Virus record (IMG/VR): IMGVR_UViG_2718218452_000012
Length of the DNA stretch: 64,000 nt
Source: a virus
Lineage: Duplodnaviria > Heunggongvirae > Uroviricota > Caudoviricetes
Strand: one strand, 5' to 3'
The first letter of the stretch is position 1; every line of letters begins with the position of its first letter. A program made the position numbers. Positions 41,801 to 44,800 of the stretch are shown one piece after another.

Positions 41801-44800
41801 GCCCGTCGCTGGCTGGAAAGAAACTCAGGTGAGTGATATGGATTTCGACACAATCATGGAAAAGGCTTACGAAGAATACTTCGAAGGCCTTGCCGAAGGC
41901 GAAGAAGCTCTCAGCTTCAGTGAGTTTAAACAGGCACTCAGAATAAGAATGTGCTCTCACAATGACGCGGAGCACAAATATGAGAAGCAAAATCAGACCG
42001 CAGAAAATTTTGTTCTGGAACCCGGAGAAACGCTTTTCAAAATTCCCGTTACGTGCCCCATTTGCGGTTTTACATCAGAAGAACTTGACGACTCCTGTAA
42101 CAATCAGGAAACAACCAAGTATGTCGAAGATGATACCGAGTGCGCACGAAGAACGATTATATCCACGAGTCCAAACTCCAGGACCAATAAATCTCACTAT
42201 GAGAGGGTGATTAATCCACTCCCCCAAACCAATAAAAAAGATGCCGGAGGACAAAAAACCCAATGGAACAACGGGATATCTGTCAAAAAAAGACGTTCCA
42301 TTAAAGACAAACAACGCAGCGCCAACAACTGTAAGAGCTTTATACCAGTAATCAATTTTCATGTTCTTAAGCGGATTTATTGGTGGTTGCGACATTGCTT
42401 AATGAATCCTTAAAACTGTGGTGATTTTAAGGATACCACCTCGCCTGACGTGGTTAAAAGCAGGCACACAACACGAAAGCGCACGGCGAAGTTCGTCTCA
42501 CTGTACGGTGTCGTTAAATTTAATTCGACCGTGCGCTTCCGGTTGTGGCAACCCGCAAAATGGCGCGGCGGTAAGTATGGCGGGGTTATTCCTTCCCCGT
42601 TGAGGACACCGGGTTGTCAGGTTGACCATACGCTTAAGTGACAACCCCGCTGCAACGCCCTCTGTTATCAATTTTCTGGTGACGTTTGGCGGTATCAGTT
42701 TTACTCCGTGACTGCTCTGCCGCCCTTTTTAAAGTGAATTTTGTGATGCGGTGAATACGGCTAAGCGCACGCGGAACAGTTAAAACCAAAAACAGTGTTA
42801 TGGGTGGATTCTCTGTATCCGACGTTAATTGTTAACTGGTTAACGTCACCTGGAGGCACCAGGCACTGCATCACAAAATTCATTGTTGAGGACGCGATAA
42901 TGAAAACGTTATTACCAAACGTTAATACGTCTGAAGGTTGTTTTGAAATTGGTGTCACTATCAGTAACCCTGTATTTACTGAAGATGCCATTAACAAGAG
43001 AAAACAAGAACGGGAGCTATTAAATAAAATATGCATTGTTTCAATGCTGGCTCGTTTACGTCTGATGCCAAAAGGATGTGCACAATGAATTCAGCATTTG
43101 CGCTTGTTCTGACAGTTTTTCTTGTTTCCGGAGTGCCAGTTGATATTGCAGTCAGTGTTCACAGGACAATGCAGGAGTGTATGACTGCAGCAACCGAACA
43201 GAAAATTCCCGGTAACTGTTACCCGGTCGATAAAGTTATTCACCAGGATAATATCGAAATCCCGGCAGGTCTTTAAAACAGTTCCGTAATAAATATCCGG
43301 TTTCATTCTTATATGCCAGCAATGGCAGGGATTTGTTCATCCTTAAATCTGTCATGAGGTTAAAACAAATGAGTAAAGTCTTTATTTGCGCCGCTATTCC
43401 TGACGAACTGGCAACAAGGGAAGAAGGCGCTGTGGCTGTAGCCACAGCCATTGAAGCTGGCGACGAACGCCGTGCTCGAGCAAAATTTCACTGGCAATTC
43501 CTGGAACATTATCCGGCTGCTCAGGACTGCGCTTATAAATTTATTGTCTGCGAGGATAAACCTGGCATACCCCGCCCTGCCCTCGATTCATGGGATGCTG
43601 AATATATGCAGGAAAACCGCTGGGATGAGGAGTCTGCTTCTTTTGTCCCGGTTGAGACTGAATCCGATCCGATGAACGTCACTTTTGACAAGCTGGCCCC
43701 TGAAGTACAGAACGCTGTCATGGTTAAGTTCGACACATGTGAAAACATCACCGTTGATATGGTTATTAGCGCATGCGCTAATAACCATATCAACGGTGAT
43801 GTTTTCACATGTGTCGAACTTAACCATGACAGCGTTCTGTACTTCAGGGGCCAGCTTGTCAAAAGTGACGTTCATCGGATCGGATTCAGTCTCAACCGGG
43901 ACAAAAGAAGCAGACTCCTCATCCCAGCGGTTTTCCTGCATATATTCAGCATCCCATGAATCGAGGGCAGGGCGGGGTATGCCAGGTTTATCCTCGCAGA
44001 CAATAAATTTATAAGCGCAGTCCTGAGCAGCCGGATAATGTTCCAGGAATTGCCAGTGAAATTTTGCTCGAGCACGGCGTTCGTCGCCAGCTTCAATGGC
44101 TGTGGCTACAGCCACAGCGCCTTCTTCCCTTGTTGCCAGTTCGTCAGGAATAGCGGCGCAAATAAAGACTTTACTCATTTGTTTTAACCTCATGACAGAT
44201 TTAAGGATGAACAAATCCCTGCCATTGCTGGCATATAAGAATGAAACCGGATATTTATTACGGAACTGTTTTAAAGACCTGCCGGGATTTCGATATTATC
44301 CTGGTGAATAACTTTATCGACCGGGTAACAGTTACCGGGAATTTTCTGTTCGGTTGCTGCAGTCATACACTACTGCATTGTCCTGTGAACACTGACTGCA
44401 ATATCAACTGGCTCTCCGGAAACAAGAAAAACTGTCAGAACAAGCACAAATGCTGAATTCATTGTGCACATCCTTTTGGCATCAGACGTAAACGAGCCAG
44501 CATTGAAACAATGCATATTTTATTTAATAGCTCCCGTTCTTGTTTTCTCTTGTTAATGGCATCTTCAGTAAATACTGGGTTACTGATAGTGACACCAATT
44601 TCAAAACAACCTTCAGACGTATTAACGTTTGGTAATAACGTTTTCATTATCGCGTCCTCAACAATGAATTTTGTGATGCAGTGCCTGGTGCCTCCAGGTG
44701 ACGTTAACCAGTTAACAATTAACGCCGGATACAGAGAATCCACCCATAACACTGTTTTTGGTTTTAACTGTTCCGCGTGCGCTCAGCCGCATTCACCACA

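Follow-up and report, generated by a model that had tools for sequence, protein, structure and literature searches.

How does a gene that begins as ydfB come to encode 191 amino acids (aa), when its counterpart in the same DNA encodes only 42? The DNA in question, 64,000 nt from a virus of the class Caudoviricetes (IMG/VR record IMGVR_UViG_2718218452_000012), is referred to here as "the window", meaning the whole stretch that was analysed. It contains two DicB-type prophage immunity regions, mutually inverted. Arm 1, on the plus strand, has a single long open reading frame (ORF) where arm 2, on the minus strand, has the short ydfB followed by ydfC. An initial annotation of the window described the long ORF as a full-length YdfB-like zinc-ribbon protein and offered two origins for the difference: either a longer ancestral gene left the short ydfB behind as a remnant, or arm 1 is a recombinant fusion. 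Here, we show by comparative sequence analysis that the "long YdfB" is a mosaic in-frame fusion of 34 ydfB codons to a different phage gene, i.e., the result of a cassette swap. Our overall reading, to which we assign a probability of about 0.7, is a recombinant fusion onto a two-gene cassette in which both strands are coding: a small membrane protein gene on one strand and, on the other, a gene with a CPxCG "knuckle" and a tail antisense to the membrane protein gene.

The features on which the argument depends are as follows (window coordinates):

41838..42413, plus strand: long ORF, 191 aa; a chimera of the 5′ part of ydfB and a knuckle ORF with an antisense tail
41838..41939, plus strand: 34 codons of ydfB, starting at the native ATG and preceded by the native Shine-Dalgarno sequence; identical to arm-2 YdfB
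41939..42475, no strand: cassette in place of the ydfB 3′ end and ydfC; without homology to arm 2 45075-45491
42017..42074, plus strand: conserved N-terminal core of the plus-strand gene, outside the overlap; includes the CPICG knuckle (42054-42068)
42075..42395, minus strand: small membrane protein gene, 106 aa, of the DYWYKA / GLGEWINHPL family; embedded wholly in the plus ORF, in codon register
42411-42407, minus strand: Shine-Dalgarno sequence AAGGA of the minus-strand gene
42430..42457, minus strand: candidate promoter of the minus-strand gene; -35 TTAACC (42457-42452), 16-nt spacer, extended -10 TGg-TATCCT (42438-42430)
45464..45592, minus strand: short ydfB of arm 2, 42 aa; phrog_2061
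45216..45434, minus strand: ydfC of arm 2, 72 aa; phrog_1744; unrelated to the long ORF

A ydfB start joined in frame to a foreign cassette

The long ORF runs from an ATG at 41838 to a TAA stop at 42411-42413 (205 aa if an upstream ATG at 41796 is used), in agreement with the earlier estimate of about 190 aa, and the CPICG motif that had been pointed out occupies residues 73-77. Arm 2 likewise has the composition described for it, a short ydfB and then ydfC, both on the minus strand. The identity of the long ORF's N terminus to arm-2 YdfB also holds, although it spans 34 residues (BLASTP, 34/34) rather than the 33 reported. At the DNA level, the arms are 96% identical across 41603-41938 / 45492-45827. 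Beyond 41938 / 45492 homology ceases; it returns patchily at ~42455 and cleanly from 42509. The non-homologous stretch measures ~530 bp in arm 1 versus ~420 bp in arm 2, the latter consisting of the last 8 ydfB codons, ydfC, and some leader. The breakpoint is at ydfB codon 34/35, and the last 8 residues of YdfB are exchanged in the long ORF for 157 unrelated ones. Pairwise comparison found no similarity between YdfC and any part of the long ORF, so that "split ydfB/ydfC", the term first used for arm 2, is a misnomer.

Profile matches follow the same boundary. The long ORF is a full-length match to phrog_35040 (E = 3.1e-140; residues 1-191 against profile positions 15-205), and it matches phrog_2061 through residues 1-34 only (positions 13-46 of 54; E = 3e-21), whereas arm-2 YdfB covers positions 13-54 of 54. 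By position, the long ORF does resemble ydfB: it follows ydfA, has a coupled start, and has DicF and dicB downstream. The Prokaryotic Genome Annotation Pipeline (PGAP) calls codons 1-34 alone, giving them as a pseudogene of ydfB ("ydfB, incomplete, missing C-terminus"), and leaves the following 960 bp without annotation on both strands.

The long form is widespread rather than unique to this sequence. A 643-nt probe was covered over at least 80% of its length in 793 of 5,426 complete E. coli genomes, and phage HannyBb carries the long form at 99.4% identity. The 191-aa length is kept in 78 of 80 E. coli-type loci. Nor is the long form explained by a single indel, as had been considered, since unrelated DNA lies between the endpoints of arm homology. 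The short ydfB plus ydfC form is commoner, with 2,310 of the same complete genomes carrying it.

In other phages, the gene beyond the breakpoint has other N termini. The plus ORFs of different lineages are mutually unrelated upstream of about residue 60. In L011 and P0007-P0010, the ORF starts from the Shine-Dalgarno sequence and ATG of ydfA ("MGIQKQ"); in L006-L008, it has its own start ("MKMKANKQ"); and in Yersinia, L014, and L016, it has still other heads. The knuckle gene has its own ATG and Shine-Dalgarno sequence in L006/L008, L014, and L016, and the same cassette block is found with different flanks in L006/L008, L009/L010, and L011. In the window, no Shine-Dalgarno sequence precedes the only in-cassette ATG ahead of the knuckle (41949), while the ydfB ATG is preceded by GGTGAG and coupled to the stop of ydfA; therefore, the recombination joint supplied the translation start. 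Together with the breakpoint at codon 34/35, the alternative N termini bear out the suggestion that arm 1 is a recombinant fusion. The long ORF is not an ancestral full-length YdfB, a conclusion that is silent on the origin of ydfB itself.

The plus frame is also found in combination with ydfC. In P0007, P0008, and P0010 (metagenome and Logan contigs), it runs through the cassette into ydfC, giving ORFs of 245-271 aa; the plus ORF of L011, which begins at the ydfA ATG, likewise crosses the cassette (4680-5345). Since the frame continues into ydfC, the cassette can sit upstream of an intact ydfC, besides replacing it. Downstream of ydfC in arm 2, positions 45040-45075 have a short, partly deleted likeness to arm-1 42428-42470 (AAGGATA...AAAAG..CA.AC), which hints at a ydfC-type arm that formerly lay next to the cassette or underwent exchange with it.

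Evidence for coding on both strands of the cassette

The cassette encodes a 106-aa hydrophobic ORF on its minus strand (42395 to 42075) that occupies 56% of the long ORF and was missed in the initial annotation. It lies in exact codon register with the plus frame: (42395-41838+1)/3 = 186, i.e., its ATG falls exactly opposite plus codon 186 and its TGA opposite plus-frame Ser80. Comparison with relatives shows this to be a real gene under purifying selection, belonging to an unnamed family. Sixty database homologs (34-58% identity), nearly all of 100-115 aa, come from Yersinia, Herminiimonas, Reinekea, and many metagenomes. In an alignment of 24 sequences, YWYKA (residues 16-20) and G.GEW.NHP (56-64) are invariant, and D15, L57, and L65 are nearly so; the window protein has the family motifs NPL..L.[IL]DYWYKA at residues 7-20 and G[LI]GEWINHPL at 56-65. 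A scan of one genome per species placed 34 family loci in Gamma- and Betaproteobacteria, Desulfobacterota, Nitrospirales, Polyangia, and Arcobacter. When a family profile was run against 1.84 billion representatives (50%-identity library), 490 family members were returned, with the window-type cluster P0028 at E = 1.7e-37. AlphaFold2 predicts three helices (residues 17-32, 42-62, and 85-105) and a beta hairpin (65-79), with a mean predicted local distance difference test score (pLDDT) of 86.7. The gene is intact in 80 of 80 E. coli-type loci, polymorphisms among them are mostly synonymous in the minus frame, and the ratio of nonsynonymous to synonymous change (pN/pS) is 0.20-0.24. The protein matches no PHROG family, and a PADLOC scan matched the window protein to no defence family, with a weak JAB match in one of 24 relatives.

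Four enterobacterial lineages with different flanks share a conserved block upstream of the minus-strand ATG. This block contains the candidate promoter at 42457-42430, proposed from its sequence; a simple consensus promoter scan did not call it. No terminator for the minus-strand gene was found in 41990-42075, and the only terminator-like match (41879-41898, minus strand) is at chance level and lies in the shared ydfB segment.

Two further observations concern relatives of the membrane protein gene. A tRNA gene (Gly-CCC or Asn-GTT) lies ~125 nt upstream of it, on the opposite strand, in L006 (4802-4875), L007 (3952-4033), and L008 (3482-3563), which are the prophages with the 58%-identity variant of the protein. 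The chromosome of Arcobacter sp. Pygsuia-1 (L026, L027, L028) has a family member near an S24-type repressor in three copies, 100% identical over at least 6.3 kb, which suggests a triplicated prophage or mobile element.

On the plus strand, selection is visible just outside the minus-strand gene. Four enterobacterial lineages, whose membrane proteins are merely 51-84% identical, share I-P-x-x-C-P-[IV]-C-G-F in the plus frame, and a related motif, P.Y.KCP.CG.D, occurs in L014 (an uncultured gammaproteobacterium), L016 (Roseateles), and ~20 IMG/VR viral contigs. C-P-x-C-G is invariant across at least 11 lineages, with x hypervariable, even though all four Pro, all four Gly, and both Cys codons are used, the variation being confined to third positions; this pattern is typical of a translated peptide and not of a nucleic-acid motif. 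In the 12-22 codons before the overlap (the N-module), pN/pS is 0.35-0.38 in frame compared with 0.94-3.4 in the other two frames (the in-frame values listed are 0.35, 0.38, and 0.51). In most lineages, an ATG with a Shine-Dalgarno-like sequence is found 26-50 codons ahead of the overlap.

The "zinc ribbon" of the initial annotation reduces to this single conserved knuckle. A second Cys/His ligand pair is lacking: C87 and C102 are lost in P0008, P0010, L006, and L009, cysteines past the knuckle are not conserved, and a second conserved CxxC is absent from every partner group compared. Pfam and NCBIfam domain scans of the long ORF gave no match, and AlphaFold2 predicts only the YdfB-derived helices (pLDDT ~75; shallow alignment). 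Scans of both proteins and of distant partners with Pfam, NCBIfam, PHROGs, and PADLOC returned nothing beyond phrog_35040, phrog_2061, and phrog_1744. A canonical zinc ribbon is thus not supported by sequence or by structure prediction.

A further indication that the plus frame is translated comes from its stops. Given the codon register, every plus-frame stop reads as TTA, CTA, or TCA in the minus-strand gene, and such codons can be counted among its Leu/Ser codons. In seven representatives of a viral clade, they number 0/78 in the covered last 62 minus codons but 13/45 in the uncovered first 31 codons of the same genes (Fisher 6e-7), a test with some circularity in that the covered part is set by the first stop. 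The enterobacterial clade has 0/62 and a second partner class (see below) 0/143, compared with 78/336 in partner-less family members of similar GC content (p = 7e-7 and 6e-14, respectively). Overall, 23-29% of Leu/Ser codons are stop-creating in uncovered parts and partner-less relatives. The plus ORF closes 15-39 nt past the minus-strand ATG in nine measured lineages with a low-to-moderate-GC membrane gene; in a marine and viral CP clade, it stops 32-43 codons short of that ATG. Synonymous differences between clades (pS 0.6-0.9) are near saturation, and the lineages are thus reasonably independent. These comparisons show the N-module to be under purifying selection and stops to be excluded from the plus frame while the tail drifts. 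Both frames of the pair are open, and each bears its own mark of selection: pN/pS of 0.2 for the minus-strand gene, and stop purging and the N-module for the plus-strand gene.

The second partner class has a different head, F.E.LE..PGSV......G.VTLIGW, on the same fully open antisense tail, and is found in nine viral or genomic loci and in phage mEp390. Both head types (CPxCG and PGSV..LIGW) are 20-45 aa long and conserved at the amino-acid level. In mEp390 (L247, NC_019721), the PGSV..LIGW partner ORF is the annotated gp39 (3462-3917), between cro and cII; the membrane protein gene opposite it is unannotated, with a TTG start at ~3501 and the Shine-Dalgarno sequence AAGGA. A homolog search with gp39 found five close unnamed relatives only. 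No lambda-type CII sites (TTGC-N6-TTGC; PRE-driven model) were found near the mEp390 copy.

Several observations weigh against coding on both strands, most of them concerning the tail. Synonymous divergence of the minus-strand gene is 0.58 inside the overlap versus 0.59 outside, i.e., no signal of constraint from the tail was found, and plus-frame pN/pS is 1.06 in the overlap versus 1.15 in an uncovered control. Among 80 E. coli-type copies, six of the 12 overlap polymorphisms are synonymous for the membrane protein and alter the plus protein; upstream of the overlap (41838-42074), four of five polymorphisms are synonymous in the plus frame and one is a singleton replacement. To judge from these patterns, selection in the tail acts on openness alone, and the tail may have no function as a peptide. 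AlphaFold2 gives the long ORF no fold beyond the YdfB-derived helices, with pLDDT <50 at residues 42-176 and 182-191 (alignment of six sequences). Open antisense frames are not rare: by chance, one occurs in register in 21% of the 107-codon windows taken from long ORFs of this same DNA. The lineages are not fully independent, and the case rests on recurrence across them. The promoter of the minus-strand gene is conjectural, as is the direction of regulation proposed below. Finally, PGAP sees a ydfB pseudogene and annotates neither strand's gene.

The pseudogene call, the drifting tail with its lack of added constraint on the minus-strand gene, the predicted disorder, and the 21% background are all compatible with a shadow ORF, in which the minus-strand gene alone is real, the cassette has truncated ydfB, and the rest of the 191-aa frame, open by chance as in-register antisense frames often are, is either untranslated or read through without meaning. 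Chance would not, however, be expected to remove stop-creating codons in every covered group and leave them at 23-29% elsewhere; nor would it provide CPxCG and its flanking residues, which lie outside the minus-strand gene and evolve in a coding pattern, or a start codon with a Shine-Dalgarno sequence upstream of the overlap in most lineages. We therefore regard a shadow ORF as unlikely. Rather more credible, if still doubtful, is the possibility that the plus frame and its start region are kept solely to provide ribosome cover for the early mRNA across the antisense gene, as protection from Rho-dependent polarity and RNA duplexes, with a functionless polypeptide; this overlaps with our own model. 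It would explain why stops are purged from a tail whose sequence is unconstrained, why the ORF closes 15-39 nt past the minus-strand ATG, and why the cassette always lies in a polycistronic early operon, upstream of needed genes (dicF/dicB; cII-O-P). It does not explain two head modules conserved as amino acids, which a pure spacer would not need, or the marine and viral CP clade, where the ORF ends well before the minus-strand ATG. By far the least probable alternative is that the 191-aa protein is the original YdfB and that the K-12-type ydfB and ydfC are its broken remains. The identical 34-residue N terminus and the abundance of the long form are consistent with this idea; the lack of similarity of residues 35-191 to the YdfB tail or to YdfC, the abrupt DNA breakpoint, and the occurrence of residues 60-191 elsewhere without the ydfB part argue strongly against it. 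The short form, moreover, is the more frequent of the two and reaches the C-terminal end of its own profile, which speaks against the idea that short ydfB is a remnant.

Genomic setting and a proposed mechanism

In arm 1, the plus-strand order is DicA-like repressor, dicBp-like promoter, ydfA, long ORF, DicF, dicB, ydfD, and the 5′ part of an exonuclease gene. Arm 2 has the E. coli K-12 arrangement on the minus strand: dicA, ydfA, ydfB, ydfC, DicF. The neighbouring features are as follows:

41030-41488, plus strand: DicA-like repressor, arm 1
41576..41604, plus strand: dicBp-like sigma-70 promoter of the ydfA / long-ORF / dicF / dicB operon; TTGACG-17-TAAATT, from a consensus scan
41681..41836, plus strand: ydfA, arm 1 (51 aa, DUF1391); stop at 41834-41836, 1 nt ahead of the long-ORF ATG
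42674..42725, plus strand: DicF small RNA, arm 1, in the same operon downstream of the cassette; Rfam RF00039, 76.7 bits
43085-43276: ydfD, arm 1, intact
44822-44873, minus strand: DicF, arm 2

The promoter at 41576..41604 matches the position of dicBp in the K-12 dicBF operon and is, by this analogy, its probable equivalent. In K-12, dicBp is under DicA repression (PMC10448788).

The partner ORF was on the early-operon strand beside the repressor in all loci examined, with the membrane gene therefore pointing against the early operon in each case. In the PGS class (mEp390, L155, L221, L168), the partner is tightly packed between cro and cII; in L148 and L006-L008, it lies just downstream of cI; in Roseateles, it follows a cro-like gene; and in the window, it lies behind dicBp and ydfA.

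Our reading of the locus as a fusion onto a two-gene cassette can be put as a model. A mosaic exchange has swapped the 3′ end of ydfB and all of ydfC for the ~0.5-kb cassette. The minus strand of the cassette encodes a 106-aa protein of the inner membrane, predicted to have three transmembrane helices and probably made from its own promoter; the plus strand encodes a short conserved N-module, ending in CPxCG, and a ~110-codon tail antisense to the whole membrane gene. In this lineage, the plus gene has lost its own start and borrows the Shine-Dalgarno sequence, ATG, and first 34 codons of ydfB. It would be expressed as part of a repressor-controlled early operon, here dicBp, ydfA, ORF, dicF, dicB. 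The membrane protein would be an accessory product of the prophage, whose own promoter would drive its synthesis as long as the early operon is silent. Judging by where its gene lies, it would most plausibly act at the membrane in superinfection exclusion, abortive infection, or the lysis-lysogeny decision, although we consider a defence or exclusion role only tentative, at somewhat worse than even odds. Derepression of the early operon would then silence the membrane gene by convergent transcription, and unbroken translation across the cassette would shield the early mRNA from Rho-dependent polarity or duplex formation, so preserving downstream functions (DicF and DicB here, cII-O-P elsewhere). 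The knuckle protein may also counteract the membrane protein; its conserved head suggests a function of its own.

The same arrangement may hold for the family as a whole. We lean slightly towards a module that pairs a small membrane protein with a soluble knuckle protein, their genes overlapping antisense in exact codon register for 190-320 nt, selectively maintained, and always in the immunity region. Such a module would be distributed among temperate phages of Enterobacteria, marine Gammaproteobacteria, and Betaproteobacteria, with two alternative partner heads. If this is correct, the module would be a built-in, mutually exclusive switch between a lysogen product and an early-lytic product, and a natural sense/antisense protein pair.

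Some features of the two arms lie apart from the cassette. The arm-2 copy of ydfD, a lysis protein gene (44271-44462, minus strand), has a TAG at codon position 31 (...ATG CAG TAG TGT ATG...); the arm-1 copy is intact. The arms join head to head in a zero-spacer palindrome (42582-44965, centre 43773/43774) inside an exonuclease gene (ydfE/recE-like), with 99% complementarity across 1,192 nt. None of the 5,426 complete E. coli genomes covered at least 80% of a 400-nt probe spanning the palindrome centre, although its halves matched separately; either a chimeric assembly or an unusual rearrangement may account for the junction. In the complete genome of E. coli strain C7 (NZ_CP010240.1), the arm-1 cassette and the arm-2 ydfB-ydfC region each have a 100% match, but 516 kb apart (around 3634165 and 4150856).

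Significance and relation to known systems

The fusion itself is ordinary phage mosaicism; the two-strand locus beneath it is of more interest. Antisense gene pairs that are long and fully embedded are a rarity in bacteria and phages, and a contested one, chiefly because most such claims depend on expression data from a single strain. The argument here is evolutionary and repeatable: stops are purged only where the partner runs, in several deeply diverged lineages, and a conserved module lies outside the overlap. The locus has been misannotated in three ways: PGAP annotates neither gene, PHROGs and HannyBb have the plus ORF only, and mEp390 has the partner only. About 15% of complete E. coli genomes carry the cassette, which lies immediately upstream of dicF/dicB and may affect expression of this toxic operon. 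Single-base changes can introduce a stop in one frame and stay silent in the other, which makes a clean experiment possible. A literature search on ydfB/ydfC, antisense overlaps in lambdoid immunity regions, and mEp390, with incomplete coverage, found no paper on the locus.

The closest known system is the dicBF operon of the Qin prophage in E. coli K-12, which has the same order of DicA-type repressor, dicBp, ydfA, X, dicF, dicB, and ydfD (PMC5069750, PMC10448788). Qin ydfB shares with the long ORF its first 34 codons, its Shine-Dalgarno sequence, and its coupling to the stop of ydfA. The long ORF from residue 35 to 191, and its underlying DNA, are unrelated to the YdfB tail and to YdfC, and arm 1 lacks ydfC and has an extra gene on the opposite strand. 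An identical locus is found in a sequenced isolate, phage HannyBb, where CDS0038 is annotated as a hypothetical protein. The family phrog_35040 (no assigned function) differs in being a gene-caller product from the upstream ATG (205 aa), with the embedded minus-strand gene ignored.

Antisense overlapping genes have been described in E. coli O157:H7, e.g., ano, antisense to ECs2385 in frame -3 (PMC5960689). As with ano, the cassette has a second, predicted coding frame that is antisense to an established gene and overlaps it. The O157:H7 cases, however, are short ORFs inside a long annotated gene, supported by expression data in one strain, whereas here a shorter conserved gene is embedded along its full length and in codon register, in recurrent phage lineages with two head types. 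The basis here is comparative (stop purging, and a module outside the overlap).

Small membrane proteins encoded beside a repressor gene are familiar from lambda rexA/rexB and from P22 sieB, with its nested esc. In sieB/esc, two products arise from a single DNA stretch and one tempers the other, with esc lying in frame within sieB on the same strand. The cassette resembles these systems in coding for a membrane protein beside the repressor, and sieB/esc also in the two products that it would yield per stretch. It differs in having no sequence or fold similarity to them and in being antisense, and an exclusion role here is a guess. A type I toxin-antitoxin system likewise pairs a membrane protein gene with an overlapping antisense transcript, which could silence it. 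We set this interpretation aside because of how large the protein is and because its partner is read as coding: the protein here has 106 aa and three helices, compared with <60 aa for a type I toxin, and its partner is an operon mRNA read as translated, rather than a small RNA.

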